NCBI GenBank assembly: GCA_021162065.1
Contig: JAGGZK010000053.1
Location: 1 to 54,125, forward strand
Direction of reading: 5' to 3'
Length of the DNA stretch: 54,125 bases
Origin: Thermoplasmata archaeon
GTDB taxonomy: Archaea; Thermoplasmatota; E2; UBA202; JdFR-43
Shown: positions 1-13,895 of the stretch, in pieces
How the letters are laid out: the number at the start of each line of letters is the position of its first letter
Position numbering within the stretch: position 1 is the first letter of the stretch
Notes under the pieces: model-generated
The model's input: the letters and a program-made list of their open reading frames with translations, nothing else
The model's database searches: none
What the model was told of the DNA's origin: nothing
Position numbers and translations under genes: made by a program

Positions 1-1471
1 GGTAATAATAAAGAATTTTCAGAATGTATATGCTGATATGGTTAACGAGATGAAAAATTTAGAGAATTATGACACAACAGATAAAACATATTATGTCGCA
101 TTTTATCATAATGCTGGTAGAACTTCGGGAAATTCTTTTGTTGGTATTGATAATACGGGAAGTTACACAATGAAAAGTAATGTTACATTTTGGTTTGAAA
201 TAAGAGAAACTGACAACACAAATGGAGATTATACAAACTATAATCTTTCCACATTCAATGATGTCTATAATTTTAAGTTTAAGATTGCATATAACAGTAG
301 CAATAATTTTACAAGGTTTTTAAATCAATGTTGGATATTTGCAGGTAAAGGAATGGGAAGCGATAGAGATTATAATATTAATTATTTTACTGCATTTTCA
401 TCTAAAAATTCTTTCTTTTCGGCAGTTAAAATATATCAAACAGGTTCTTATGCTTCAGGTAAACCTTATTGTATAGCGTATGTTAATAATGGTTCTGTTA
501 CTTCATCAGCATATTGGAATAGAAGCGGTATTTTGTCTTGGAGAACGAGAATGCTGGATGTTTACAATACTATTAAAGACAATATGATAGCGGATGCTAA
601 TGCTTATTGGAATTATCTCCATTCATTAGGATATTATAACCTTTCAGATTTGCCAGAGGATTATATTCATGTTTTCCCTGATGTTTTTCTCCCAAATATG
701 GATTTACTCGGTAATTTATCAATGGAGAATTTTACAGCATTGTATAATGCAATTATGGCACAATTGGCACAACAGTTGGCAGATGAAAATATAACTAATA
801 TAACATGGGATAACTTTAAGATTGGTGATTATGTCGGGAAAACTGCAAATATAACATTAAAAAGGGTTACTAACACCACAAGCGGAGATGGTGAGGTTAT
901 AATTGATAAACATTATTGCTATGTTATACCTCTGGAAAGTGATTTAACAATATATACGAATAAAACTTATGCAATAACCCATAACACAAATAAACCGGCG
1001 TGGGCAGACAATCTCATTAACCAAAATGTTATGGTTATGGATTTAACCACGTATAGAACATATTACATTATAACCAACGAAACAACATATTACAATTTAA
1101 CCACGTATGATTTGAAAGAGGATAACAATTCAGTAAACTCATTAGATTATGATGTTGTTGACCCTAACGATTTTACAAATGCAATTTGGGGATTTAGATT
1201 TGTGACACCTAACCCGGAGGATTATATAATGCCAGTTCCACAGGATGAGCAAGATTTTTGGGATTTATTGAATGACTATAAAGGCATTATTACTGTTGGT
1301 TGCATTGTTTTGGGTGTAATCTTAACAGCAGGCACCAGGAAGGGAACGGGAGGGCACACCATTGGCATATTGCTTCTGGTTGCCGGGTTGGGAATGGCTG
1401 CATACTGGTACATCCTCCCGGCGGTGAACGAGATAACCTCCTTCTTTGACAAACTCACGTTCTGGGATTAG
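1..1471 (+). CDS. Large membrane-anchored surface protein, putative viral spike/fusogen (5'-truncated by window edge)
   Basis: Frame open to position 2; Asn/Thr/Tyr-rich ectodomain with many NxS/T sequons, helical segment then beta-rich segment, two C-terminal TM helices; heads the membrane protein/NTPase block. Confidence 0.55.
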   Translation, partial: VIIKNFQNVYADMVNEMKNLENYDTTDKTYYVAFYHNAGRTSGNSFVGIDNTGSYTMKSNVTFWFEIRETDNTNGDYTNYNLSTFNDVYNFKFKIAYNSSNNFTRFLNQCWIFAGKGMGSDRDYNINYFTAFSSKNSFFSAVKIYQTGSYASGKPYCIAYVNNGSVTSSAYWNRSGILSWRTRMLDVYNTIKDNMIADANAYWNYLHSLGYYNLSDLPEDYIHVFPDVFLPNMDLLGNLSMENFTALYNAIMAQLAQQLADENITNITWDNFKIGDYVGKTANITLKRVTNTTSGDGEVIIDKHYCYVIPLESDLTIYTNKTYAITHNTNKPAWADNLINQNVMVMDLTTYRTYYIITNETTYYNLTTYDLKEDNNSVNSLDYDVVDPNDFTNAIWGFRFVTPNPEDYIMPVPQDEQDFWDLLNDYKGIITVGCIVLGVILTAGTRKGTGGHTIGILLLVAGLGMAAYWYILPAVNEITSFFDKLTFWD

Positions 1472-1485
1472 GGTAAGGTGATGAT

Positions 1486-2067
1486 ATGGAATGGAAAATA
1501 GGGAAAAGGGGAATGGGATGGAAGGGAGGCATGATGATTATCCCCCTAATCGTCATGCTGATGATTGGGAACGTGGGGGCAACGACGGTAAACGTGAGCA
1601 TAGCGGGGCTTGGGGACGATCTGGTTCTCGGAAAGGACTATGCGGTGTTCAACATCACGGTGGCAAATGCCACCAGCGTAAGCAAGGTGCAGATATGGGG
1701 AGGCAGCAATGCAAGCAACCTGAGCAAACTGAAGGAATGGACGACATCCGCAGCCTACTACACATATAACTGGACAAATCTGAGCGATGGGGTGAAGTAT
1801 TACTACAAGGTGGCTGTCTTGGACAACGGCACATGGGTGAACAAGACGGGCAATTTCACCGTGCAAACATCCAGCATAATGGTGTATCTGACAGGTGAGG
1901 AGGCATATAAAACGTGGATCACAGGAGGCATGCTTCTGCTGGGATTGGCATTACAGGGAAGTAAACAATACAGAAAATTCGGGGTTATACTCCTCATAAT
2001 CGGCGTAATAGTGGGAATATACTGGTTCAATCCTCTCAACATAATGGGCTATTTCGGAGGTGGTTAA
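1486..2067 (+). CDS. Secreted Ig/FN3-like domain protein with C-terminal TM hairpin (putative virion protein)
   Basis: Signal peptide, beta-sandwich pattern (YTYNWTNLSDGVKYYYKVAV), two C-terminal TM helices; GGTGA RBS upstream. Confidence 0.7.
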   Translation: MEWKIGKRGMGWKGGMMIIPLIVMLMIGNVGATTVNVSIAGLGDDLVLGKDYAVFNITVANATSVSKVQIWGGSNASNLSKLKEWTTSAAYYTYNWTNLSDGVKYYYKVAVLDNGTWVNKTGNFTVQTSSIMVYLTGEEAYKTWITGGMLLLGLALQGSKQYRKFGVILLIIGVIVGIYWFNPLNIMGYFGGG

Positions 2068-2593
2068 AATGAACGACTTCATAACGTTGCTGATATACTC
2101 CCTCCTGGGAATTGCATACTACTTCGCTGGCTTGAGAATCTTCAACACAGGGAGGAAAAACATAGTCAACCTTGATGCTGGCAAACTCCAGATATATGCC
2201 ATCCTGACAGCCATAATCGGGCTTGGCTTGACATACTGGCTGTTCAACACAGCAATAGAGAACATCGTTGGCATTCTCTCATTCATCCCCGTATTTCCAT
2301 TGATGGCAAGGGGAGGATTCATGGACGTCCTGGACGGCAGGGGGCAGGCAGCCAAGAAGTTTGACAAGATTCTCATCATAGCCATAGGCGTTGTTTTTGG
2401 CTTCTGGCTCCTGACTTTCCTCAGCAGTTATTCGCAGATAACCAGCATAAGCACATACCTGCCGGCGGGCATAGTGGCGTTGCTGGGCTTCTGGATGATA
2501 GGAAACAAGGACGACAATCTGACGAGATGGGGCTATGGACTGCTGGCGACGGCGTTGCTCATCGTTGTAATGCAGATGGGTTTGTTCGCATGA
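2060..2593 (+). CDS. Polytopic membrane protein of the element
   Basis: About 5-6 hydrophobic helices; overlaps upstream stop; GGAGGTG RBS. Confidence 0.75.
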   Translation: MVKMNDFITLLIYSLLGIAYYFAGLRIFNTGRKNIVNLDAGKLQIYAILTAIIGLGLTYWLFNTAIENIVGILSFIPVFPLMARGGFMDVLDGRGQAAKKFDKILIIAIGVVFGFWLLTFLSSYSQITSISTYLPAGIVALLGFWMIGNKDDNLTRWGYGLLATALLIVVMQMGLFA

Positions 2594-2599
2594 GGAAGC

Positions 2600-3067
2600 A
2601 TGAGAGCCAGGAAATACATCCCTCTTTCCCTTCTATTCATTTTTCTGTTCGCCTGCCTGAATGTTAATGCACAGGATAGCCGGGAGGGTTTTGTCTGGAT
2701 CATAAGCGACAACAAACTCGTGAAGCAGAGCGAAAACATCGTCCTGGACAACGAGTTCTACATATTCCATTCCTACGATTACATCAGCGTGAAGTATTAC
2801 AGGGGCAATGAAACGTTTTTCCAGAGAGATAAGCAGGTTGGTAAACTTCTTTCTCTCACTCTCCATGATGGGGCAATATTGGAAATAAAGCATAACAACA
2901 GCGTGATCCTGAAGACAATAACCCACAAGAAAACCATCTCAAACACCCTGAAATACGGCTTGGGCGTGGAGTTCCAGCGTTCCATCATTTCCATAATAAT
3001 GGCTTTCGTGGTTGCCATCTCCGTGAACATCGCATATTATTACAACCTTGAGAGGAGGATATTATGA
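2600..3067 (+). CDS. Signal peptide plus C-terminal TM protein of the element
   Basis: N-terminal hydrophobic signal, soluble domain, C-terminal TM; operon spacing. Confidence 0.75.
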   Translation: MRARKYIPLSLLFIFLFACLNVNAQDSREGFVWIISDNKLVKQSENIVLDNEFYIFHSYDYISVKYYRGNETFFQRDKQVGKLLSLTLHDGAILEIKHNNSVILKTITHKKTISNTLKYGLGVEFQRSIISIIMAFVVAISVNIAYYYNLERRIL

Positions 3068-3429
3068 TTAAAGAAATGCTAACCACAAACTGGTTCTGGG
3101 CGTTGTGGGGGACAATGGGGGCTTATGCCATGATAAAAATACATAAGAGGGGCATTCCGTTTTTCGGCGATTTCGCCACGTTCTGGTTCGGAATAACCGC
3201 CTTTCTCGTGGGTTTTACCGTTCAATTCTCATTCTTTGGCTTATTGCTGGATTCGTCGGGAAATCTGGACATAAAGCAGATTCTTTACCTCGGCTTCCTC
3301 ATAATCGCATTCATCGGAACCCTCAAATTTGTTATGAATCAGAAATGGCTCAAGCCGTTCGCCTTCATCATCGAGATGTTCATCCTGGGTATGCTGGCTA
3401 ACTCTATATGGGATATGGTGGTGACATGA
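3064..3429 (+). CDS. Small 4-TM membrane protein of the element
   Basis: Hydrophobic throughout; ATGA overlaps with both neighbours. Confidence 0.75.
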   Translation: MIKEMLTTNWFWALWGTMGAYAMIKIHKRGIPFFGDFATFWFGITAFLVGFTVQFSFFGLLLDSSGNLDIKQILYLGFLIIAFIGTLKFVMNQKWLKPFAFIIEMFILGMLANSIWDMVVT

Positions 3430-4070
3430 AGGTTCTGGAATTTGGCAGGGAGTCTGTAAACTACGCCAGGGCAAAGTTTGACGAGTTAAAGAGAGGCTTC
3501 ACCCTCACCGCAGCCGCCGGCTTGTCCATCGTTCTTTTCATGTTCGCCCCGGATAAGTTCTATTTCATCGTCTTTGCTGCATTCTTCACCGCAACCATAT
3601 ACCATGCCATGCAGAGAATAGCAAACCTCAAGCACATCCTGACAATCGACTTCAGAAAAAACAGATTGGGGCTTTACCAGATGAGCCAGAAAAGGTTTAA
3701 CGAGTATGAGATCATAGACGAGGCGGGACTGCCGGCGACCATAAATTACAGGTTGATGGGAAAGAAGGCGGAGATCATAATCGCCGATGGGATAAAAGGG
3801 AAAAGAATCATTGTGAATCCCATTACTTCAAACATAGAGTTTGTGAGGAATTACAAGAAGGTTGCCATGGATCTGAAGGAGAAAATGAACCAGACGCTCA
3901 ACGAGATGATAGACCTCAAGGCGAAGTTGAGATATGAGACGTTGCTGAAGAGCGTTGAGTTGCTGGAAAGGGTGAGCGTTGTCGATAAGATGAACATCCC
4001 TCTGGAAAAATCGAATGGAAACGGAACGGTGGAGAAGGTAATGGAGGAGTTGGGGATAAACAATGAATGA
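3426..4070 (+). CDS. TM hairpin plus coiled-coil protein preceding the NTPase
   Basis: ATGA overlap at 3426; two N-terminal TM helices, ILTIDFRKNRLGLYQMS segment, C-terminal coiled coil; layout recalls the pre-NTPase gene of pleolipoviruses/pT26-2 elements. Confidence 0.7.
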   Translation: MKVLEFGRESVNYARAKFDELKRGFTLTAAAGLSIVLFMFAPDKFYFIVFAAFFTATIYHAMQRIANLKHILTIDFRKNRLGLYQMSQKRFNEYEIIDEAGLPATINYRLMGKKAEIIIADGIKGKRIIVNPITSNIEFVRNYKKVAMDLKEKMNQTLNEMIDLKAKLRYETLLKSVELLERVSVVDKMNIPLEKSNGNGTVEKVMEELGINNE

Positions 4071-4395
4071 GATGGAGAAGAAAGGAAGGTTTAACTACAT
4101 TCCCCGGGACTTCAGCGAGGTAAAGCAGTTCATAGACAGTGTTAATGAGAAGTATGGCATAGAGGTGTCCATCGTTGAGGACATAGAGGTTTACATCATC
4201 CTGAATGAGATGAGGAAGATAGCGGAGGAACACGGCTATGAGAATGCAATGAGGGAGATCGACGACCTCATCAAACAGAATTTCGCAAAGGATCTCACAA
4301 AGCAGAGGTTCATCATGCTGAGCAGGAAAATGCATGAGAGCATACTGAAGGGGAAAAACAGCATTGTGGATGTCCTGGAAAATGTTGAGATATGA
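4063..4395 (+). CDS. Hypothetical helical protein
   Basis: 110 aa ORF coupled to both neighbours. Confidence 0.7.
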   Translation: MNEMEKKGRFNYIPRDFSEVKQFIDSVNEKYGIEVSIVEDIEVYIILNEMRKIAEEHGYENAMREIDDLIKQNFAKDLTKQRFIMLSRKMHESILKGKNSIVDVLENVEI

Positions 4396-5131
4396 CGTTG
4401 TGGGGCTTGTGGATCCAAAACTGCATAAATTTTGTAAGTATGTGAACATGGTTAGGAGCCAGGATGAAGACTTCATCATGCTCATAACGGGGCAGACAAG
4501 GAGCGGGAAATCCACCTTGGCAATTGAAATGGCAATGCTCATGGATTCTGAATTTGAAATGGAGAGGCAAATTCTTTTTGACATAAAGGATTTGAAGAAA
4601 AGAATCTATGAGGAGAGAGGGAGAGTTTATCTCCTTGATGAGGCAATTTTTGATGCTTTCAACAGGGACTCAATGAGCATGATGAACAAATTTCTCATAA
4701 AGGTATTTACGGTGTGTGCGGAAAGAAATCATGTTATTCTAATGCTCATACCCAAGGTGAAATGGCTCGATAAACCCGTTAAAGAACGCATATCATTCAT
4801 GTTTTACACGATGAAGTATTACACCCCGGAAGGCGTTAAACGTGGCTCATATCGTGCCTATGACTGGACGGATTTTAACCCATTTGAGGACAGCGAATAT
4901 CCCACGTATGCATGGACGGGCAAATTTACACGTTTACCCCCACCTTTCTATGCAAAATACAGCGAGTTGAAAGTGCAGAATGTGAGGAAACGCCTGGAGA
5001 TAGATGAAAATAACCCATTACAATTCATGAGCAAGACGGCGATAGCCAGGGCAATCCTGAACGATCCACGCTTCAATGTGAGCAAGAAAGATCTCTATCC
5101 GATTTTTGGGAACGTGGTGTATAGGTTATAA
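4382..5131 (+). CDS. P-loop NTPase (viral morphogenesis/genome-extrusion type, Zot-like)
   Basis: Walker A GQTRSGKST, Walker B YLLDEA, LDKPVKER motif; ends the membrane protein block. Confidence 0.85.
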   Translation: MLRYDVVGLVDPKLHKFCKYVNMVRSQDEDFIMLITGQTRSGKSTLAIEMAMLMDSEFEMERQILFDIKDLKKRIYEERGRVYLLDEAIFDAFNRDSMSMMNKFLIKVFTVCAERNHVILMLIPKVKWLDKPVKERISFMFYTMKYYTPEGVKRGSYRAYDWTDFNPFEDSEYPTYAWTGKFTRLPPPFYAKYSELKVQNVRKRLEIDENNPLQFMSKTAIARAILNDPRFNVSKKDLYPIFGNVVYRL

Positions 5132-5140
5132 AGGATCCTT

Positions 5141-5467
5141 CTAACCCAATTTTTTAGTGAACCATTCTTCCACAGCCTTTGAGAACATCTCTGACCATGT
5201 GTTAAATTTGGTATGTTGTTTCACATATTCATTAAACTCTTTGGTTTCAAATATCTCTTGTGGGGTTTTGTCCACATCCTCACTAAATAATTCACTGTTA
5301 TTTAAAAAATCATCAATAGCGTTTGAATCTGTGTATCTTTGCATAAAAGAGGGACTAAATAACTCACTTAAAGAAACTTTAATTTCTTTGAATTTTTGTA
5401 TTTCTTTTTGGGTAGCCCCTAATATTCTTAACACTTCATCAAGACCTTCTATCTTTATGTCAAACAT
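5141..5467 (-). CDS. Conserved hypothetical protein (cargo)
   Basis: 108 aa AT-rich ORF with ELFSPSFMQRYT and TKFNTWSEM motifs resembling a small uncharacterised family in mobile elements. Confidence 0.65.
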   Translation of the reverse strand: MFDIKIEGLDEVLRILGATQKEIQKFKEIKVSLSELFSPSFMQRYTDSNAIDDFLNNSELFSEDVDKTPQEIFETKEFNEYVKQHTKFNTWSEMFSKAVEEWFTKKLG

Positions 5468-5499
5468 ATAAAAGAAGCGTTATAGGTGTATTTAATCGT

Positions 5500-5612
5500 T
5501 GGCGTGGCTTTTTCACATTCCGCTGCAATCTCACTCCTTGCCCTTGTATAATAATATAATATCAGGGGCGTGTGAATTGTGAAAAATAGGGAGTGTTTTT
5601 TTCACACCGCAA
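5500..5612. repeat. Non-coding region with repeated TTTTTCACA motif in both orientations and an AT-rich-loop hairpin
   Basis: TTTTTCACA at 5509-5517 and 5598-5606, TGTGAAAAA at 5578-5586; GCCCTTG..CAGGGGC around TATAATAATATAATAT. Confidence 0.5.
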
Positions 5613-5672
5613 ATTTTATGAATCCATGCAACCCCCCTCCATGCTTTTCAATCCCCAAATTATTTCCCCATC

Positions 5673-5864
5673 ATGGAAAGGAAGGTTTACATTCGCCCGG
5701 AGGATTCGCTGGAGTTTGTGTATGAAATCCTGGATAAATACAAGAATGAAGACACTCCAGATAAGGCAATAGAGAAACTAAAGAAGGACATGAGAAAGAT
5801 GATCCGCTATTTCAAGGATGAAAAATTTGAGAAGTTGCAGAGGGAGTTTGGGGTGGATCCGTAA
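5673..5864 (+). CDS. Small hypothetical protein
   Basis: 63 aa charged helical ORF, convergent with the protease gene. Confidence 0.6.
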   Translation: MERKVYIRPEDSLEFVYEILDKYKNEDTPDKAIEKLKKDMRKMIRYFKDEKFEKLQREFGVDP

Positions 5865-6332
5865 TTATTCCTCTTTCTCAAGCCATGCTATTTGCTTGGA
5901 AGGATGAAAATAAAGAGAGAGGTTGTGAAGTATTAAAAAATCTACTCCAATAATGCTTGGGAGAGAATATGACATGCCCCATCCTTCCTTATTGTCAGTA
6001 TATGGCAAATATACATACAATTTTTGTGGCTTTAAGTGGACTATTTCATTATCTTCCGTTCTGAACCTAATATCAAACTTCTCTTTTATAGGATATCCTT
6101 TATGTTTAGCCCCACCTATCATAATTTCCTCAAAGTCATTTCTATCAATTATGCTCTCAACATTAATATTCCTCTTCAAAAGTTGAGATAATGAAATAGA
6201 TGTATGACCACTCCCTGTATCTACAAAGGCATTAACAAATAATCTCGTATGTCGCCGAGGGAACTCACAAATAAATGTAACAAAAGGTTTTAGTCCACCA
6301 CTAAATTCTTCAACCTTTAATGTGATCTTCAT
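5865..6332 (-). CDS. Retropepsin-like (clan AA) aspartyl protease
   Basis: FVDTGS catalytic motif and C-terminal SIIGVDFL motif. Confidence 0.8.
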   Translation of the reverse strand: MKITLKVEEFSGGLKPFVTFICEFPRRHTRLFVNAFVDTGSGHTSISLSQLLKRNINVESIIDRNDFEEIMIGGAKHKGYPIKEKFDIRFRTEDNEIVHLKPQKLYVYLPYTDNKEGWGMSYSLPSIIGVDFLILHNLSLYFHPSKQIAWLEKEE

Positions 6333-6339
6333 GGGACAA

Positions 6340-6585
6340 TCATAAAATTAAAATTAGATTTTTTGGGGGAATGTATTCTATTATCGTTCTACTTAATTCA
6401 TCATCACTCAATTTATCTTTCAAACTATTGACTAAGTGTTCTGCATTTTCATCCACACCAACTATTTTCTTATTTATGATTGCGACAAACTTTCCAGCGT
6501 ATTTTTCTTGTAACTCCTTAAAATGTTTTGCCATCCAATGACTATCTTCCTCGAATTCCTTCATAAATTTCAATTCTTCTTCCAT
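6340..6585 (-). CDS. DUF5678-like small protein paired with the aspartyl protease
   Basis: W..KHFKELQEKYAGKFVAIINKKIVG pattern; start may be 6585 or 6615. Confidence 0.7.
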   Translation of the reverse strand: MEEELKFMKEFEEDSHWMAKHFKELQEKYAGKFVAIINKKIVGVDENAEHLVNSLKDKLSDDELSRTIIEYIPPKNLILIL

Positions 6586-6649
6586 TCCTTTTCCCTCCTT
6601 CATTCCTTCATTCATTCCTTTATTCTTTATTTCCTTCCGCCTATAATCA

Positions 6650-6671
6650 AAAAGTTATATTTATAACTTTT
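6650..6671. promoter_or_regulatory. Perfect palindrome overlapping a TATA box upstream of the DUF5678/protease pair
   Basis: AAAAGTTATA-tt-TATAACTTTT; minus strand contains TTATAAATA. Confidence 0.5.
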
Positions 6672-6768
6672 ATAAATTCTTTGTTTTATGTCTCTCCTCC
6701 ATTACCTCCTCAATCTTCACCAGATACTCCGCAACCTTTTTCCCCTTTTCAGTTAGCCAATACCACAT
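6670..6768 (-). repeat. Repressor-tail copy D (diverged), 32 aa mini-ORF MWYWLTEKGKKVAEYLVKIEEVMEERHKTKNL
   Basis: Translated by hand; aligns with the C-terminus of the wHTH protein at 9332-9616; starts 5 nt after the stop of 6774-7988. Confidence 0.75.
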
Positions 6769-6773
6769 AGTAA

Positions 6774-7988
6774 TCAGAACCAATTATAGAACTCTTGATT
6801 ACTTGAAAAACTTTTGTATATTTGTTGATTGAACACGGCTTTAACGTTTACGGAGTCAAAATTATTTTCCTTTCTATATTCATCTATCGCACTAGATTCT
6901 ATTCTTGGTTGGGTATTTCTCCATCCTCCATTATATGGAAAATCCTTATTTTGCCAAGTTGGATCAAAGATACATAATTTATCATCTTCAACATTCACAA
7001 AAATACACATATGATAGGTTTTTTCCCCATTCTTAATTAATTCAACCTCTGCACAGTAAAGCCATTTTACATCTTCTTCAGCCAGACACAAACTTATGAA
7101 TAAAAGAGCATGGTCTTCACAATCCCCTTTTTTGTTTTCCAGAGTTTCACAAGGATATAACCAACATTCTCCCCATACTCCCCCTTTAGGTGCAGTAATA
7201 TCCATGTCATAGTTATATTCTATATTGTCATATACCCAATCATTTATTTTATCCATGTCATCCCAAGTTAAATCACCATTGCAGCTACTGCCTAAAATAG
7301 ATTTTACTTTATTTTTTACTTCCGGATCATCAGGTGTAATAAACTGCTGAGCATATTGGGGTAATATAGCTTTTCTTTTACTTATAGTTTCCATTATGGA
7401 GTTATATTCATCTTCCAAAGCACTATAATCTGCTTTTAATGATTTGTATTTGTTATTTAAAGTAGAATAGTCATTTTGGAGAGCACTATATTGGGATTGT
7501 AGGAGAGAATAATTATTTTGAAGTGTTTTGTAGTCACTCTGGAGCGAGTAGTATTTCGATTGTAATTTTTCATAATCATCCTGTAGAGACATATATTTTA
7601 GCTCCAAAGAACCATACTCACTTTGGAGTGATTTAAAATTGGTATATAACGAGTTATAATCCTCTTGTAGAGAGTTGTATTCTGTCTCAAGAGCGGTATA
7701 ATTGTTTTGTAATGTTTGATATTGTTGTTGGAAAAGATTATGTTGTTCTTGAAGATGATTATAATTTGCCTGAAGAAGAACATATTTTGATTGAAGGGAA
7801 TTATAACTTTTCTTTGTCGTGTTATATTCCTGCTGGAGGTTAATATATTCCTGTTGCATGCTGGCATAATCTTCTTTAACTTCACCATATTCCTGTTGTA
7901 AATCTGTAAATGTATAAAAGCCCGCTACGTTAAACACAACTGATATACTCAAGAAAAGCCCTAATACTGCAGCCCCTGCATTTGACAT
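6774..7988 (-). CDS. Membrane-anchored coiled-coil protein with C-terminal transglutaminase-like cysteine protease domain
   Basis: N-terminal TM, long Y/L heptad repeat, GDCEDHA Cys motif, HM and FDPT completing a Cys-His-Asp triad. Confidence 0.8.
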   Translation of the reverse strand: MSNAGAAVLGLFLSISVVFNVAGFYTFTDLQQEYGEVKEDYASMQQEYINLQQEYNTTKKSYNSLQSKYVLLQANYNHLQEQHNLFQQQYQTLQNNYTALETEYNSLQEDYNSLYTNFKSLQSEYGSLELKYMSLQDDYEKLQSKYYSLQSDYKTLQNNYSLLQSQYSALQNDYSTLNNKYKSLKADYSALEDEYNSIMETISKRKAILPQYAQQFITPDDPEVKNKVKSILGSSCNGDLTWDDMDKINDWVYDNIEYNYDMDITAPKGGVWGECWLYPCETLENKKGDCEDHALLFISLCLAEEDVKWLYCAEVELIKNGEKTYHMCIFVNVEDDKLCIFDPTWQNKDFPYNGGWRNTQPRIESSAIDEYRKENNFDSVNVKAVFNQQIYKSFSSNQEFYNWF

Positions 7989-8012
7989 GAAGCGAGATAT
8001 AATGTAAAAAAT

Positions 8013-8774
8013 TTATTTCTTTCTATTTTTTTCGATTTTTTCCATTATCTTCTCAATCTCTATGAGATGTTTTGCGATCTCTTTTATTGCTTTCTTAGAG
8101 GTAATAGCACTAACAATCATCGCAATGGCTGTTATAATAACCATGCCTCCCGTCACAAGTACCATCCATTTTTGCCATTCTACTAAGTTTTTCGTTTCTA
8201 TTGCAGTTACTAATTGTTGAACAGCGGAAGGAGATAAAACTTCAATTCCTTTTCTGTTTCCATAATAATTAATCACTTTGCTATTTTTATCGAAATTCCA
8301 AATATTTCCTTTATATTCACATACATAAGTTGAATGATTGGTTTGAATTTCAATTGTCCATATTCCAGTTTCATTCAAAATTAGAGGTTTTTCTGGATTT
8401 AAATCCCAATATGATGAAATATATAGTATCGTCTTTTTGTAATGCCAATTATAATCTTTTACCATGTTAATATATCTTGTATGTCCGCTTGGTGAAATTA
8501 TAATAAGTCTTTCTATTGAAATGTTTGATGTAGAATCCAGTTGATAAATCCTGATATACATTATATTTTCATATAATTCAAATTGATCTTCTGAGAGATA
8601 TTTATTTCTATAATGGGATTCAAATTCCAATTTTATCGCAGTTGCAGAACCATAAATTTTTCCAGCCCATTCCGAGACGGTTTTCCAACTATTGTCATAA
8701 TAAGCATAAGTATTTAAATTAAATAGTAAAATAGCTATACTAACAATCGCCAGAGAAAATTTTATCTTTTCCAT
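8013..8774 (-). CDS. Secreted/membrane protein whose cytoplasmic C-terminus is a repressor-tail copy
   Basis: Signal peptide, beta-rich domain, TM helix, then KEIAKHLIEIEKIMEK identical to the repressor tail. Confidence 0.75.
   Translation of the reverse strand: MEKIKFSLAIVSIAILLFNLNTYAYYDNSWKTVSEWAGKIYGSATAIKLEFESHYRNKYLSEDQFELYENIMYIRIYQLDSTSNISIERLIIISPSGHTRYINMVKDYNWHYKKTILYISSYWDLNPEKPLILNETGIWTIEIQTNHSTYVCEYKGNIWNFDKNSKVINYYGNRKGIEVLSPSAVQQLVTAIETKNLVEWQKWMVLVTGGMVIITAIAMIVSAITSKKAIKEIAKHLIEIEKIMEKIEKNRKK
8042..8085 (-). repeat. Repressor-tail copy C (in-frame fusion)
   Basis: 44 bp identical to 8782-8825. Confidence 0.9.
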
Positions 8775-8854
8775 TCTTTCACCATTATCTTCTCAATCTC
8801 TATGAGATGTTTTGCGATCTCTTTTCCTTCTGGAGTGAGCCAATACCACTTCAT
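8762..8854 (-). repeat. Repressor-tail copy B, 30 aa mini-ORF MKWYWLTPEGKEIAKHLIEIEKIMVKEWKR
   Basis: 8782-8836 matches 9361-9415 at 53/55 nt; ATG overlaps the upstream stop (ATGA) and its end overlaps the downstream start. Confidence 0.88.
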
Positions 8855-9330
8855 TTTAACCTTCCTATTTCCTTTTCTATAGCAATTACAAACTTTTTCA
8901 ATTCACCAAATTTGGCTCTTTGAATACTCCATTTCATCTTATCTGTTGTGGAAAATCCAGATACAATGAAATTTAGAGAACACTTATTATAATCGTAAAT
9001 GCCTTGCCCAATCAGGGAAATCGAAAAGATGATTGTAAAGATCATAAGAATAGTGGATAATTCGTTATCATTTATCCCAAAAATTTCTAAAAAATAGCCC
9101 CAGAAAAACGATAGTATAAATATGACTACTCCTGCTATTATCCACCCTATCCAGTTATGAAAAATCATGGAAAGAGAAACAATATGGGGATAAAATAACA
9201 TATCTACTTTTTCTTGGGATCCTCCCTTATGCCTTATGATTTTTTTATTTGTAGCATAAAAATCGATACCATATTGTGAAAATTTTGCTATAACTTCTTC
9301 ATCCTCATCGAGATAATCTTTCAGAGGCAT
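8851..9330 (-). CDS. Membrane protein, possible bacterial-PH-like domain with inserted TM hairpin
   Basis: YLDEDEEVI...FYATNKKII N-terminus, two TM helices, C-terminal helix; starts 1 nt after the repressor stop. Confidence 0.65.
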   Translation of the reverse strand: MPLKDYLDEDEEVIAKFSQYGIDFYATNKKIIRHKGGSQEKVDMLFYPHIVSLSMIFHNWIGWIIAGVVIFILSFFWGYFLEIFGINDNELSTILMIFTIIFSISLIGQGIYDYNKCSLNFIVSGFSTTDKMKWSIQRAKFGELKKFVIAIEKEIGRLK

Positions 9331-9331
9331 G

Positions 9332-9616
9332 TTATCCCTCTCTCTTTTTCTCCATCTTTTCCATTATCTTCTCAATCTCTATGAGATGTTTGGCAATCTC
9401 TTTTCCTTCTGGAGTAAGAAAAATCCATTTCTTTCCTCCGAATTTGTCCTCTATTTCCCAATCTATTAAACCCTGTTCTCTTAATTCTTTAACTCTATCT
9501 ACTAATTGACCTCCTTTCATACCAACAAAATCTCCTAATTCATCCTGATATAACTTACCTTTGTCTAAAAGAATGGATAATATTTCAATACTTCCCTTTT
9601 TTCCAAATATTCTCAC
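9332..9616 (-). CDS. Winged-helix (HxlR/MarR-like) transcriptional regulator, putative proviral repressor
   Basis: SIEILSIL..LYQDEL..RVKELREQGLI..WIFLTPEGKEIA wHTH pattern; GTG at 9616 preferred over TTG at 9697. Confidence 0.8.
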   Translation of the reverse strand: MRIFGKKGSIEILSILLDKGKLYQDELGDFVGMKGGQLVDRVKELREQGLIDWEIEDKFGGKKWIFLTPEGKEIAKHLIEIEKIMEKMEKKREG

Positions 9617-9742
9617 AATAGTAAAATAGTAATTTATATCTAAATTTGATTTTCTATCTTTGTAGATTTTAAGAAAATAATAAAGTTTATAAACCAATTT
9701 GTATTATCTTTTTGTAGAAATTTAGAAAGTAGGAGGAATAAT
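9617..9742. promoter_or_regulatory. Divergent promoter/operator region (genetic-switch-like)
   Basis: AT-rich gap between divergent regulators; TTTATAAA at 9686-9693; repeated TATCTTT(TT)GTAGA; AGGAGG RBS before 9743. Confidence 0.55.
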
Positions 9743-9973
9743 ATGGAAAGAGGAAATGGAAATGAATGGAAAAGTGTTGGTGTTCGTCCTGTTGTCATAA
9801 AAATGCTGGAGAAGTTGCAGGCACATTACCATTACAGGAACGGGGAAAAGATGAGTTATGGAGCCATCGTTGAGAAGTTGGTAACTGCCGAGTTTTCCGC
9901 CCTGGGGCTTGAGTTGAACGGAAATGAGGAAAGGGAAAGGGAGGAGAGGAAAGAGTTGGAGGTGGTAACGTGA
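9743..9973 (+). CDS. Small putative DNA-binding protein (RHH-like), first gene of rightward operon
   Basis: WKSVGV strand followed by two helices; strong RBS. Confidence 0.6.
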   Translation: MERGNGNEWKSVGVRPVVIKMLEKLQAHYHYRNGEKMSYGAIVEKLVTAEFSALGLELNGNEEREREERKELEVVT

Positions 9974-10173
9974 AGTTGTGGAAGAAAGTGTATTTCTTCT
10001 TTGGATTCTTTGGAGGTGTTTTTGGATTTCTAACAAGCATAATATTCGAAGATTCTTTTAGCAATGCCGAGTTTTTGCCTTTATTCCTCCTCGTCATATC
10101 TGGAATGCTTCTTGGGGTGCCATTTGGAATGGTTATAGATAAAGAAATTTCAAGGAAGGAGGCGATAGCATGA
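9970..10173 (+). CDS. Small 2-TM membrane protein
   Basis: GTGA overlap, GGAGGTG RBS, two hydrophobic helices. Confidence 0.65.
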   Translation: MKLWKKVYFFFGFFGGVFGFLTSIIFEDSFSNAEFLPLFLLVISGMLLGVPFGMVIDKEISRKEAIA

Positions 10174-10298
10174 TTTCTGAAAACACTTGGTTAGGAAGAT
10201 TTTATAAACCAGAGAACAAAGAGGAAGAAGAATGGCTTAGACAAGCAGGATATAGGAAAATTGTATGTGGTTTTGGGATGGGGTGGTGGCACAAATGA
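10170..10298 (+). CDS. 42 aa hypothetical protein (not in ORF track)
   Basis: MISENTWLGRFYKPENKEEEEWLRQAGYRKIVCGFGMGWWHK; ATGA overlaps at both ends; GGAGG RBS. Confidence 0.55.
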   Translation: MISENTWLGRFYKPENKEEEEWLRQAGYRKIVCGFGMGWWHK

Positions 10299-10465
10299 GA
10301 TTGAAATGCCCCAAGTGTGGATATGAGCAGCCGTCCACGAACCCTGAGGAGGATAGAAAGGCATGGGGGGAGTTGGTGGCTGCCGGCGTTTATCGCTGTC
10401 CATTGTGTGGTGGAAAAATGGAATTTGATGAGGAAGAGAAAATGGAGATATTAGAGGAGGGATGA
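10295..10465 (+). CDS. Zn-ribbon protein
   Basis: CPKC...CPLC; ATGA coupling at 10295. Confidence 0.7.
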   Translation: MRLKCPKCGYEQPSTNPEEDRKAWGELVAAGVYRCPLCGGKMEFDEEEKMEILEEG

Positions 10466-10468
10466 GGT

Positions 10469-10744
10469 ATGAGGGATGAAAGAATAAAAACGATAGATGT
10501 GGTTGATGAGGTTATCAAAATACCAGAAGAGATCATCAAATTTCCTTTGGTTATCAGACAACCATTCCTGACCGAAATTCGTTATAAACCAAATGAATTT
10601 GGAGTGCAAACAGTTAGAATGTGGTTCAAAGAGAAACCACAAATTCCTGAAGATGAAATCATAATCAATGGAAAGCGATTCAAGGTGAATTTCATAGATA
10701 CAAACAACCGATTAGGAATGTTTTTTGATATGCTGGAGGGATAA
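10469..10744 (+). CDS. Hypothetical protein
   Basis: 91 aa ORF in operon with RBS. Confidence 0.6.
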   Translation: MRDERIKTIDVVDEVIKIPEEIIKFPLVIRQPFLTEIRYKPNEFGVQTVRMWFKEKPQIPEDEIIINGKRFKVNFIDTNNRLGMFFDMLEG

Positions 10745-10745
10745 A

Positions 10746-10886
10746 ATGGTAGAGGCAGAATGTATGGAATGTGGCAATACCTTTTTGTTGTCGGGTGTAG
10801 AATTGATAAGGTTGTATAGAGGAGAAAAGGTAAACTGTCCAATTTGCGGAAGCAAGGTAAAACTCATAGAGGAGGTGGTGGTTTGA
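10746..10886 (+). CDS. 46 aa Zn-ribbon protein (not in ORF track)
   Basis: MVEAECMECGNTF...VNCPICGSKVKL; GGAGG RBS; fills the operon gap exactly. Confidence 0.7.
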   Translation: MVEAECMECGNTFLLSGVELIRLYRGEKVNCPICGSKVKLIEEVVV

Positions 10887-11254
10887 GGGGAATTATAGAG
10901 GTTGGGATGGATGACGGGAGGAGAATGATTTACCGGGACGGGAACCGGCTCCATCTCGCTGTCAGGGGGGACAGCGTGGGGGGAGTCGTAAGAACGAGAA
11001 GGGTGAAGTCCATCGAGTTCGTTCCCTTGGATGATCTTGAGGGCATAAGGTATAATGGCGGTTTGCTGGAGAAAGACATAGTATACATTGACGGAAGTTT
11101 TGACTGGCAGCGTGGCGTTGTGATAGGAAAGATGGGATCCATGTTGTTTGTGAGGAAAAGGGATCTGTTCGACGGCACGGATCTCGACAGAAAGGAGAGA
11201 GTGCCGATTGAGAATGTCGTTGGGGTGGTGAAGGATAGACATGAGGAGAGTTGA
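10883..11254 (+). CDS. Hypothetical beta-rich protein
   Basis: TTG overlapping upstream stop with GGAGGTG RBS; overlaps integrase start. Confidence 0.6.
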   Translation: MRGIIEVGMDDGRRMIYRDGNRLHLAVRGDSVGGVVRTRRVKSIEFVPLDDLEGIRYNGGLLEKDIVYIDGSFDWQRGVVIGKMGSMLFVRKRDLFDGTDLDRKERVPIENVVGVVKDRHEES

Positions 11255-12242
11255 TCCTGAGACATGGAACCGATTCATCAATCATTGCTATGCTGAACAG
11301 CAGTTATCAGAGAAAACCATCATGGTTACCGTCAGGGCGTTAAAATACCTTGAGAGATGGGGCATGGATTTGATGGCTGACGAGAAAACCCTCAAGGAAA
11401 AGGCGATGGAGTATTTTGCCTTCAGGAGATTAAACGAGGGAGCGGAGGGGACAACCCTGAACCTGTATGTGAAGGCGTTAAACAGGTGGTGTGCATTTCG
11501 TGGCTTCGATTTGAGATTCAAGAAGTATAAGGAGATCTCTCCACCCCGTCGCATTCCGGTTACATCCGACATAAGGAAATTGCTGGACGTGTGCAAGGGC
11601 AGGGATCCGATAAGCAAGAGAGATCGGACATTGATTTATTTCATGGTGAACACCGGCTTGAGAAGGGAAGAGGTTGCCAATTTAAAACTCTCCGACATTG
11701 ACTGGAAAAACGGGTTTATCAAGGTGAAGGGAAAGGGAGGGAAAATCAGGATGGTGGCTGTCCCTTCGAGAGTGCTGGAAGGTAAAACAGCCCCATCGCT
11801 TAAAAACTATATCGAGAGATGGAGATTCCCGACCCACAGCACGGCTCTTTTCACCACACAGAGGGGCAAAATAACCCCTCAGATCGTGGGTAAGATAGTG
11901 AGAACCAGGGCAAGAGAGGCGGGCATGCCATGGATCCATGCTCATTCATTGAGGCATTACTATGCCACCAATCTTTTGAGGGCAGGCGTGAACATCCGCA
12001 TTGTCCAGGAATTGCTGGGACATGCTGACATCAAAACCACAGGAATATATCTCCATATCATCGAGGGAGATCTGAGGAAAGCGGTCGAGAATGAGAATAT
12101 TGAGGATCCTCTGAAAGTTCGCATAAGGAGAAAAACCAAGACCCCCCGAAAATCGGGCATGCTTGACAAAAAAATATGGGAAGAACGAAAATGCTCCCGC
12201 CGGGATTTGAACCCGGGTCTTCGGCTCGAGAGGCCGAGATGA
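11241..12242 (+). CDS. int: Tyrosine recombinase/integrase
   Basis: TGLRREE (R), KGKGGK (K), HSLRH, LLGH, TTGIY (Y) all intact; adjacent to tRNA. Confidence 0.95.
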   Translation: MRRVDPETWNRFINHCYAEQQLSEKTIMVTVRALKYLERWGMDLMADEKTLKEKAMEYFAFRRLNEGAEGTTLNLYVKALNRWCAFRGFDLRFKKYKEISPPRRIPVTSDIRKLLDVCKGRDPISKRDRTLIYFMVNTGLRREEVANLKLSDIDWKNGFIKVKGKGGKIRMVAVPSRVLEGKTAPSLKNYIERWRFPTHSTALFTTQRGKITPQIVGKIVRTRAREAGMPWIHAHSLRHYYATNLLRAGVNIRIVQELLGHADIKTTGIYLHIIEGDLRKAVENENIEDPLKVRIRRKTKTPRKSGMLDKKIWEERKCSRRDLNPGLRLERPR

Positions 12243-12266
12243 TTGGCCGGACTACACCACGGGAGC
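12192..12266 (-). tRNA. tRNA-Glu(CTC), integration target
   Basis: GCTCCCG acceptor stem, TCGGC-CT-CTC-GA-GCCGA anticodon arm, CCGGG-TTCAAAT-CCCGG T arm. Confidence 0.97.
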
Positions 12267-12392
12267 TTAGGGAAGTATATGCAAACTGATTTTTAACTAT
12301 TTTGTTTCTGCTGTGGGAAATCAAAAACAGATTGGCCGTATATGCACAATCAAATTCCCAAAACAATTATATGATGGAAATATTTTAGATGC

Positions 12393-13895
12393 ATGAAGAT
12401 CCATCCTGCCGCCATATCCCTCCTGATAATACTTTCCATTCTTTCTACATCCTCTCTCTCCTTCAACAGATCAGCCCTTTACCTGAACATCGACTGCTCT
12501 CTTACAGAGGGAAAAATAAAATATTTCTCCGAAATAAATTCCGGGCCATTGCCCATTCACTATATTAAAGATGGCGTGGATATAACAGAGCAGTATAAAC
12601 AGATAGGTATAAATTTTGTGAGGACCCATGATTTTTATGGCCCCACGGATATAAGCACCATTTTTCCCAACTGGAGTGCGGATGTAAACAACCCAGCAAG
12701 CTACAATTTCACCTCAAGCGATGAGGTTATTGAGTCAATAGTAAATGCGGGCTGCCATGTATTTTATCGCCTCGGCGAAAGCGCCAGTGATAATGAAAAA
12801 CTACGACAACCTCCCGAAAATTTCACCAAATGGGCGGAGATATGCAAGCACATAGTGATGCACTATAACGATGGATGGGCAAATGGATACCACTACAACA
12901 TAACCTACTGGGAGATATGGAATGAACCCGATTTAAGTGGATTCTGGAACGGAACGGCGGAGCAATATTATGAATTGTACAGAATAACAGCAACAACATT
13001 GAAAAACTACAATGCCTCCATCAAGGTGGGCGGCCCATGCACCTCCTCCGTGACCAACAAGAATTTCACCACAGGTTTTCTCGATTATGTCACAGAAAAT
13101 GACATCCCTCTGGATTTCTTTTCCTGGCATATGTATTCCTCCCATCCATATGAACTTCAAATGGCATCCCTCTATATCAGAAATCTTCTCGATGTCTATG
13201 GATTAAAAGATTGCGAGAACATAAATACCGAATGGAATGTAAACATACTCTCCCCCCAGCGTGATAAAGACAATGCCAAAAATGCCGCCTTCACCGCCTG
13301 CACCATGATGGCATGGCAAAGGGCGGGCATGGACTATGCTTTCCGTTACAGAGGCACTCAGGACAACAACTGGCTTGCCAGATTGCTGGGCTTCGATTTA
13401 TCCCTCTTCGCCTACGATGGCACATATAAAAGACCTGCTTTAACATATCTTGCCATGAATTATATGGTGAAAGATACGCCCCTCATGATTCAAACGCCCC
13501 CTTTTAATGTCTCCCAGGGGATTGCATACCTTGCGGGAATTGACGAGAAGAGAAGCAACATATCCATTCTGGTAAGCAACTACGACTCGCCGGATAAAAC
13601 CTTCACCATAAATCTCACCAATCTTCCATGGGAGAAAAGCAGCATAATTCATTACCTCATAGATGAAAAACATCATCTTCAGATAGTGGAGGAGAGGAAT
13701 ATCAACGGAATATCATCCAATATAACCATCCCTCTGAACAAAAACAGCGTACATTTTATTCGCATTACATCCTCGCCTGTAATTCCTGCAGAGGGGCCGG
13801 AGGTGGCACCAATACCTCTATGGATGAAACTTCGCTTTCTTGACCCTGTGACAAAACTTCTCGGAATCCTTTTGCTGATGCTTGTCTTCGGATGA
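12393..13895 (+). CDS. Glycoside hydrolase family 39-like, secreted and C-terminally anchored
   Basis: VRTHD, YWEIWNEPD acid/base, DFFSWH, INTEWN nucleophile; signal peptide and C-terminal hydrophobic tail. Confidence 0.85.
   Translation: MKIHPAAISLLIILSILSTSSLSFNRSALYLNIDCSLTEGKIKYFSEINSGPLPIHYIKDGVDITEQYKQIGINFVRTHDFYGPTDISTIFPNWSADVNNPASYNFTSSDEVIESIVNAGCHVFYRLGESASDNEKLRQPPENFTKWAEICKHIVMHYNDGWANGYHYNITYWEIWNEPDLSGFWNGTAEQYYELYRITATTLKNYNASIKVGGPCTSSVTNKNFTTGFLDYVTENDIPLDFFSWHMYSSHPYELQMASLYIRNLLDVYGLKDCENINTEWNVNILSPQRDKDNAKNAAFTACTMMAWQRAGMDYAFRYRGTQDNNWLARLLGFDLSLFAYDGTYKRPALTYLAMNYMVKDTPLMIQTPPFNVSQGIAYLAGIDEKRSNISILVSNYDSPDKTFTINLTNLPWEKSSIIHYLIDEKHHLQIVEERNINGISSNITIPLNKNSVHFIRITSSPVIPAEGPEVAPIPLWMKLRFLDPVTKLLGILLLMLVFG

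Follow-up and report, generated by a model that had tools for sequence, protein, structure and literature searches.

INTRODUCTION

In temperate phages and archaeal integrative elements, mosaic or "moron" hot spots are accessory regions of varying content that are enclosed by conserved genes and undergo exchange at short stretches of conserved coding sequence. In bacterial toxin loci, orphan arrays lie behind cdiA and rhs genes; according to a published account (PMC4927057), new modules displace older ones downstream, the homology that is retained permits recombination with the main gene, and the arrays can be read as a record of successive acquisitions. Here, we describe a locus in contig JAGGZK010000053.1 of a Thermoplasmata archaeon (assembly GCA_021162065.1; 1.38 Mb in 74 contigs), a stretch of 54,125 nucleotides (nt) that we refer to as the window, in which a small winged-helix regulator gene of an integrated mobile element is followed by accessory ("cargo") genes and by dispersed copies of its own 3' end ("tails"; "orphans" where the tail stands without a regulator body). 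On balance, we lean toward reading this locus as an orphan-module array built by recombination in an accessory-gene hot spot of an integrative element of ~14.5 kb, which sits at a tRNA-Glu gene of a Thermoplasmata archaeon from a hydrothermal vent.

Mobile elements of the Thermoplasmata have barely been described: in one survey (PMC13573593), 5041 Thermoplasmatota and 2275 Nanobdellota genomes yielded only 30 proviral regions together. A literature search in open-access text found no description of such an array or of regulator tails dispersed in this way.

RESULTS

Four copies of a regulator 3' end lie within a co-oriented gene block

A tightly packed, co-oriented block of genes occupies positions 5865-9616 of the minus strand, as delimited from a list of open reading frames (ORFs) and by reading of the sequence. 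It begins with the regulator gene, the sole full-length copy within the window. The order that follows (tail A as the 3' end of the regulator itself, cargo 1, tail B, cargo 2 ending in tail C, cargo 3, and tail D; Table 1) had been proposed in an initial annotation of this DNA and was borne out by the ORF list and the sequence. That annotation also held that one tail follows each cargo gene, which is true of three of the five block genes but not of the DUF5678 gene and the 155-amino-acid (aa) ORF at the end of the block.

A repeat search of the region recovered a single family of four direct copies (9361-9434, 8782-8855, 8042-8115, and 6699-6772). The identities first reported for A and B (53/55) and for B and C (44/44) were reproduced in an independent recount, which also gave 65/74 for A and B in a longer register, 42/44 for A and C, and 51/74 for B and D. 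The longest exact runs are 31 nt for A and B, 35 nt for A and C, and 44 nt for B and C; D shares a run of only 8 nt with A. At up to three mismatches, the 44-nt core has three matches in the window versus 0.00 expected (100 shuffles), and no further copy of the tails was found elsewhere in the assembly. Measured against this core, C and B have no mismatch and A has two; the orphan of a related locus, L008, has none, and the tails of other loci have 6 to 12, most of them encoding the same or nearly the same peptide despite these differences. By these counts, the near-identity of A, B, and C reads as the result of recent copying within the element. Outside the window, orphan B is identical over 67 nt to the orphan at about L008:706-801. 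Orphan D shares 88% identity across 76 nt with the tail that ends a full-length gene of locus L001, and in contigs of public runs X1 and X2 a D-like tail is continuous with a full wing.

The tail encodes a wing strand and the C-terminal helix of the regulator

Matches of the regulator to Pfam families were marginal (HTH_24, 22.7 bits against a cutoff of 21.9; HxlR, 21.6 bits against a cutoff of 20.8). A profile of 18 relatives matched AF_1382 (2qvo) in a PDB profile search (E = 1.1e-05), and an AlphaFold2 model of the regulator (pLDDT 87.4, pTM 0.75) has helices at residues 2-5, 9-19, 24-31, and 36-47, a long helix at residues 69-93, and strands at residues 51-55 and 63-67. Foldseek placed this model among MarR-family chains, AF1382, 1ub9, Sso10a-2, and AspA, with a probability of 1.00 for the MarR-family chains and AF1382 and a template modeling (TM) score of 0.75 for Sso10a-2. 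The predicted structure is that of a MarR/AF1382-like winged-helix protein with a C-terminal helix. AF_1382 (2qvo/3ov8), PH 1ub9, Sso10a-2 (4hw0), and AspA of pNOB8 (4rs8) share this fold of three helices, a two-stranded wing, and a long C-terminal helix, although their sequence identity to the regulator is only 20-26%. To our knowledge, the C-terminal part of none of these proteins is dispersed as separate fragments. Sso10a dimerizes via its C-terminal helix.

Because of the secondary structure of the model, we assign the tail to the second wing strand (β3) and the C-terminal helix. Orphans B and D start exactly at strand β3; C comprises the helix only and lies behind the last hydrophobic segment of cargo 2. 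The C terminus of cargo 1 is itself weakly tail-like. The regulator gene, with a TATA-like box upstream of its GTG at 9616, is divergent from a block of small genes leading to the integrase; it may act as a repressor, and its promoter may drive co-transcription of the cargo block. Among distant relatives, P0036, P0041, P0051, P0107, P0063, and P0084 (172-198 aa) contain two complete winged-helix units per chain, each of them tailed; because of these two-unit proteins, the regulator gene appears to have undergone tandem duplication also in the form of a fusion.

Related loci carry different genes in the same place

Relatives were gathered by a protein search (22 among 23 candidates), by genome scans (five loci, one of them distant and actinobacterial), by metagenome scans (21 loci), from viral contigs (one distant locus), and from 197 genomes of the class, which supplied further loci; 12 more stretches were extracted. 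Loci with the same or nearly the same DNA were counted once (L004=L019=L030=L066; L002=L065; L029 in L001; L041 in L064; L040 in L060; L020/L021/L022; and L003/L017/L025).

As the initial annotation had anticipated, related elements carry different genes, in different numbers, in this place. It lies between the regulator and a conserved convergent gene for a 63-aa protein, which bounds the variable block. Both anchors are present in 10 distinct loci. Between the stop codons of the regulator and of the convergent gene, these have 6, 24, 24, 327, 905, 1824, 2240, 2867, 3037, or 3474 nt, and the gene content of this gap differs among them. Across nine loci, the first gene after a window-type regulator is of at least six kinds: cargo 1 in both the window and L010, cargo 3 in L013, one for a 149-aa membrane/zinc-ribbon protein in L008, one for a membrane protein of 312 aa in L001, one for a membrane protein with four segments in L011, and one for an 85-aa cysteine-rich protein in L026. 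No convincing ORF was found in the short sequence that remains after the regulator in L007 and L009. Cargo 1 has a homolog of 65% identity in L008, where the protein ends in a true tail helix, and another of 66% in L010, and L014 has a homolog of cargo 2 (67% identity over 153 aa) that also ends in a tail helix.

The 63-aa protein, which belongs to no known family, is 74-95% identical in L002, L004, L012, L014, L015, L016, L020, and L021, 49% identical in L018, and 37-38% identical in L041, L061, and L064. Its gene is the most conserved of the module; the other genes of these related elements differ widely.

Besides the window, three of the loci L001 to L027 have more than one tail, and in L001 and L008 tails flank other genes, as the initial annotation would lead one to expect. 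In L001, a type-2 regulator and a 127-aa membrane protein come first, then a partial tail; next are a type-1 regulator, the 312-aa membrane protein, another membrane protein of 81 aa, and an orphan of 29 aa. In L008, a type-1 regulator is followed by the 149-aa membrane/zinc-ribbon protein, whose end reads as a frameshifted tail, then by an orphan, a type-2 regulator, and the cargo 1 homolog with its tail helix. The third, L014, has the cargo 2 homolog ending in the helix and then a type-2 regulator. A further locus, L060, from a genome of the same family and with an integrase 75% identical to that of the window, has a regulator, a 91-aa membrane protein, and another regulator. Because of the layouts of L001, L008, and L060, we regard tandem modules of regulator plus membrane protein as a family trait. 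Most relatives vary their cargo with one tail only and no extra tail.

Two of the related loci have additional features. In L060 (G184:C10, 4098-7865), whose element has the integrase closest to that of the window, the array is followed by a 302-aa transposase of the integrase-core type and then by a gene for a Cas3-like 709-aa helicase. L058 (G182:C65, 338-1171), from a genome of the same genus, is a relic ~100 nt downstream of a tRNA-Lys(CTT) gene; over 120 nt, it matches the 3' end of cargo 3 together with orphan D at 79% identity. The ATG and first ~21 codons of this relic now open a 218-aa TPR/zinc-ribbon ORF, for which no homolog was found in the assembly of the window; a 26-aa stand-alone version of the relic is present in the database (P0042).

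Hybrid genes and shared units point to recombination at the tail

Comparison of the regulator genes of the window and L007 revealed a hybrid. At identical residues, 42 of 47 codons are identical in the body versus 16 of 30 in the wing and tail (Fisher p = 0.0008), and nucleotide identity is 142/150 in the body versus 86/102 in the wing and tail. The first regulator of L008 and the regulator of L009 track the gene of the window up to position 9360 and then have different ends, and both orphan B and the second L008 regulator combine a type-2 WYWLT strand with a type-1-like helix.

The same unit of tail plus cargo also stands behind different partners. In both the window and L010, the gene upstream of cargo 1 is a type-1 regulator; in L008, it is a type-2 regulator, and contigs of X3 and X4 join the A tail and cargo 1 to yet other bodies at position 9408. 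Cargo 3 with a tail ending in ...NRK lies directly behind the regulator in L013 and behind cargo 2 in the window. The breakpoints of homology are spread (9332, 9360, 9408, 9457, 8085, 8014, and 6765/6766). The variable gap and the recurrence of a tail-plus-cargo unit behind different partners support the proposal that units are gained, lost, or shuffled here; the dedicated, integron-like system that was proposed along with it is not supported, as detailed below.

In this family of elements, each small winged-helix regulator gene leads into a gene that is coupled to it in translation and most often encodes a membrane protein, and several such two-gene modules can stand in tandem. The best-conserved part of the regulators, namely, the wing and the last 25-30 codons (β3 and the C-terminal helix), is conserved for the sake of the protein, and of the homology between otherwise unrelated modules, those last 25-30 codons are what persists in orphans and fusions. 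We propose that modules, whether of one element or of co-resident ones, therefore tend to recombine in or next to the tail stretch, through gene conversion and crossovers of the homologous or homeologous kind and now and then through an illegitimate join. Units of tail plus cargo that arrive would push older ones downstream, and three products would result: hybrid regulators, body-less 3' fragments such as B and D, and in-frame fusions of the helix onto a preceding membrane protein, as in C.

Several observations weigh against this proposal. No recombination intermediate, A-B, B-C, or A-C deletion junction, or circle was seen in the assembled contigs of four public runs, which cannot show rare variants. 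The orphans share a left boundary: B, D, the L001 orphan, the L058 relic, and the proteins P0023, P0027, P0042, and P0054 all begin within 1-3 codons of the start of β3, and most orphans that start there have their own start codon at that place. The wing just upstream is better conserved (amino acid identity of 0.78) yet is not retained in orphans, and neither random deletion nor crossover at the edge of homology predicts such a common boundary. Finally, the ratio of nonsynonymous to synonymous differences (pN/pS) is 0.14 for the cargo 2 tails of the window and L014 and 0.15 for D and the L001 orphan, with synonymous sites near saturation. Tail differences that are mainly synonymous point to selection on the peptide, unless each tail was recently copied from a functional gene.

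In a separate case, one X3 contig joins position 5872 to 9351 and skips 3478 nt (depth of 5.7; shorter side of 30 nt with 90% likeness). This join was considered as an excision in this strain and is read instead as a cargo-less relative.

The tail is conserved as protein and may function as a peptide

Across the family, amino acid identity is 0.38 in the body, 0.78 in the wing, and 0.65 in the tail; codon identity at identical residues is 0.49, 0.50, and 0.46, respectively. Synonymous sites have diverged as much in the tail as in the remainder of the gene, so that what is conserved of the tail is its protein sequence and not a DNA site. Tails might be kept for a peptide function. The C-terminal helix would be the dimerization helix of the regulator, and B, D, and the tail-tipped membrane proteins would pair with the regulator, either titrating it or anchoring it at the membrane. 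In this way, every module that is acquired would be wired into the switch of the element, an explanation that is compatible with recombination at the tails. We consider it unlikely overall, yet a serious addition to the recombination reading. The model places a helix at residues 69-93, and its fold resembles small archaeal winged-helix proteins, including Sso10a-2. An unbiased six-frame scan found an ATG at β3 in four of six body-less tails, with start codons that were made differently (ATG AAG TGG, ATG TGG, and ATG TAT), and distinct short proteins in the database share this start (P0026, P0027, P0042, and P0054), in a census that is biased toward ORFs with a start codon. Because it lies behind the last hydrophobic segment and is rich in lysine, the cargo 2 tail is probably cytoplasmic.

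The low pN/pS of fused and orphan tails, however, may have been inherited from full-length donors or renewed by gene conversion, for which the 44/44 identity of B and C provides an example; together with the shared start, it fits selection on the peptide and also fits repeated copying from functional genes. Some tail copies are decayed or frameshifted (L008:640-801, L001:9876-9956, and L058), and the many relatives whose cargo lacks an extra tail also speak against a peptide function. A complex predicted for the regulator (alignment A2) and orphan B (alignment A3) scored 0.30 versus a mark of 0.32, without controls, and counts neither way. When residues 55-94 were compared with shorter proteins, two matches were obtained, P0023 and orphan B of the window itself. 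Against longer proteins, there were 12 candidates, none of them significant; since matches of 17 residues are too short to become significant in that database, this search says little about fused forms.

A combination of the two ideas, in which the tail is a portable module with two uses, seems to us rather improbable. Here the tail would, as DNA, provide the homology for capturing, stacking, and exchanging units of tail plus gene behind the regulator gene, in a recombinase-free cassette array driven by homologous recombination. As protein, it would be the dimerization helix through which the mini-proteins and membrane proteins that bear it pair with the regulator and feed the state of the membrane or cargo back into the switch.

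Decay, a dedicated cassette system, and assembly error explain less

An old tandem array of regulator and membrane protein genes could instead have lost the 5' parts of its inner regulators by deletion, with no recombination at the tails. The two full regulators in tandem in L001, L008, and L060 and the likeness of orphan D to the tail of the full-length L001 gene are what such decay would leave behind. It would leave unexplained, though, why hybrid genes exist, why one tail-plus-cargo unit recurs behind several bodies, why A, B, and C have only 0-2 mismatches when tails elsewhere have 6-12, and why the orphans share a left boundary, and we judge pure decay to be quite unlikely.

Still less probable is the dedicated, integron-like cassette system of the initial annotation, in which one gene plus one tail would be excised as a circle and inserted at the 3' end of the regulator gene by site-specific recombination. 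Its appeal is easily seen, since cargo 1 to cargo 3 are each flanked by tails on both sides, co-oriented, and tightly packed, the cargo 1 homolog of L008 is likewise flanked on both sides, the start of cargo 2 (MEK) resembles the ...IMEK of the tail as a circularly permuted unit would, and a tyrosine recombinase is encoded 1.6 kb away. That enzyme, the only recombinase here, is Xer-like, however, and its gene lies at an att site of its own in tRNA-Glu, where the attL/attR repeat is 22 nt long; this att site and the tails share no similarity. The integrase scored 89.7 bits against the integron-integrase model TIGR02249 (cutoff of 265) and 60.2 bits against NF011946 (cutoff of 435). Folded as single-stranded DNA on both strands (eight folds; z = -0.06 to -2.17), the four tails share no more than a 5-bp stem and lack a common long hairpin of the attC kind. 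The junctions differ from cargo to cargo and from one locus pair to the next: cargo 1 starts after the tail stop, cargo 2 starts inside ...IMEK, and cargo 3 starts 24 nt past the stop. The divergence of tail synonymous sites across the family and the variation of cargo in single-tail relatives likewise argue against a dedicated system.

A chimeric or collapsed assembly, a worry raised with the initial annotation, would fit with the window being a contig of a metagenome-assembled genome and with public short contigs that break at the repeat cores. It is hardly credible, as short public contigs of run X1 or X2 cover each tail/cargo junction without differences and independent metagenome contigs show the same junction types (the B-type orphan of L008 and the cargo 2 homolog with its tail in L014).

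The array belongs to an element integrated at a tRNA-Glu gene

The array is part of a mobile element that is integrated at a tRNA-Glu gene and encodes a tyrosine integrase, whose best NCBIfam match is XerA_Arch (168.1 bits; cutoff of 220). Two features of tRNA-integrating elements are present, namely, an integrase gene beside a tRNA gene and a direct repeat at the far border. The latter is a 22-nt identical copy of positions 12187-12208 at C71:34759-34780 (attL), on another contig, C71; past this copy, the G+C content drops, and 2.3 kb of low-G+C DNA extends to the end of the contig. Because of the copy of the tRNA end and the low-G+C DNA on C71, the element probably spans two contigs (C71:34780-37102 plus positions 1-12208 of the window, ~14.5 kb), which would be joined to each other. 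The membrane ORF that is left open where C71 ends may run on into a 5'-open ORF at positions 2-1471 of the window. The 5'-open ORF at the start of the window (1-1500; 489 aa) has a G+C content of 28-39% versus 45% for the genome and no family match.

Comparison of the element proteins with family libraries recognized no virion proteins. Nine of 10 element proteins had no match in PHROGs, and the ATPase had weak matches only. In a viral collection, no relative was found for the single regulator or for the P-loop ATPase of the element, and a scan with regulator alignment A1 gave one distant locus, L006. The label "provirus," implied in the initial annotation, is unproven, and we refer to an integrated mobile element. 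A search with Rfam over positions 5000-12500 returned the tRNA alone above threshold. Contig C32 of the same assembly (1342-1473) has a second tRNA-Glu-like sequence, whose halves match the tRNA-Glu of the window at 94% and 93% with 54 nt between them, possibly an intron-bearing paralog.

Gene content of the block

The cargo had been described as membrane or surface proteins, for which the basis here is a Kyte-Doolittle scan that found hydrophobic segments at residues 53 and 89 of cargo 1, 4 and 202 of cargo 2, and 1 of cargo 3. In Pfam, PADLOC, and NCBIfam, cargo 1 and cargo 2 had no significant family match, and cargo 3 matched only coiled-coil and transglutaminase-like models (DUF553, 29.8 bits, cutoff of 20.5, and Transglut_core, 26.4 bits, cutoff of 23, in Pfam; the PADLOC match was coiled-coil noise). 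Between its N-terminal hydrophobic segment and the transglutaminase-like domain, cargo 3 has ~180 residues of near-regular LQ..Y repeats, which it has in common with its L013 homolog. The packing is tight around mini-ORF B, whose ATG overlaps the stop of cargo 1 and whose end overlaps the start of cargo 2 by 13 nt.

Directly after D, a palindrome runs into a stretch of T, and a hairpin is present at this site in the fold of 6660-6775; together they resemble a terminator that may end the tightly packed part of the block. The two genes beyond it (5865-6615) seemingly have their own TATA-like sequence after the palindrome. The second of them, the 155-aa ORF, has no homolog among the related loci and a weak PADLOC match to candidate PDC-M08B (E = 2.7e-4); it contains a VDTGSG stretch, which we take to be reminiscent of aspartic protease motifs.

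Table 1. Positions in the window of the regulator, tails, cargo genes, and neighboring features
Feature	Position	Strand	Description
Winged-helix regulator gene	9332..9616	-	94 aa from GTG at 9616; alternative open TTG at 9697 gives 121 aa
Tail A	9332..9427	-	Codons for regulator strand β3 (residues 63-67) and C-terminal helix (69-93)
Cargo 1	8851..9330	-	159 aa; two hydrophobic segments; begins 1 nt past regulator stop
Orphan tail B	8762..8854	-	30-aa mini-ORF with own ATG; β3 and helix
Cargo 2	8013..8774	-	253 aa; N-terminal and C-terminal hydrophobic segments; ends in tail C
Tail C	8013..8085	-	Helix part only; in-frame fusion to C terminus of cargo 2
Cargo 3	6774..7988	-	404 aa; N-terminal hydrophobic segment, long coiled coil, transglutaminase-like domain
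Orphan tail D	6670..6768	-	32-aa mini-ORF of the type-2 (WYWLT) kind
Palindrome	6648..6669	-	18 nt, running into five T; directly after D; from sequence reading
DUF5678 gene	6340..6615	-	Pfam PF18929, 39.6 bits (cutoff 23.2); co-oriented; without tail
155-aa ORF	5865..6332	-	Family not recognized; last gene of variable block; without tail
Convergent 63-aa gene	5673..5864	+	Conserved; bounds variable block
Tyrosine integrase gene	11241..12242	+	PF00589, 127.4 bits; ends inside tRNA-Glu
tRNA-Glu(CTC)	12192-12266	-	attR side, 12187..12266

DISCUSSION

The locus provides a concrete and repeatable picture of how mobile elements of the Thermoplasmata may gain and stack accessory membrane protein genes. 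If the orphan-module reading is right, it would extend to an archaeal regulator gene a logic that has so far come from bacterial toxin loci. If the helix also acts as a peptide, the orphans and fusions would be natural microproteins or membrane-tethered decoys derived from the dimerization helix of a transcription factor.

Mosaic and moron hot spots differ from this locus in that here the conserved stretch itself has been left behind repeatedly, as orphan mini-ORFs and as protein fusions. Integrons are similar in having a co-oriented, tightly packed array behind a fixed gene, a repeat after each unit, and content and number that vary among relatives. Of four integron features tested, variable cassette number and content is the one found at this locus, whereas an IntI-type integrase, an attC-like fold, and a fixed crossover point are absent; moreover, the repeats here are coding and are not conserved as DNA.

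From the arrays of contact-dependent inhibition (CDI) and Rhs loci, the locus differs in several respects. In place of a large exported toxin, the main gene encodes a 94-aa DNA-binding regulator. What varies is a set of distinct genes downstream of it, most of which encode membrane proteins, and the whole resides in a mobile element of an archaeon. The retained piece also occurs as a fusion to the cargo protein that precedes it. Since searches of the cargo with Pfam, PADLOC, and NCBIfam revealed no signature of a toxin or of immunity, we do not count the array as a member of the CDI/Rhs family. In its working, nevertheless, the orphan-module array behind cdiA and rhs genes appears to be the closest analog. 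In those arrays, according to the published account (PMC4927057), 5'-truncated copies of the conserved part of the main gene stand behind it in the same orientation, and a different variable unit comes after each copy. Here, A is whole, B and D are without the body, and C is the helix only, and the identity of A with B (53/55) and with C (42/44) is enough for homologous recombination, while D retains only its 8-nt exact run with A.

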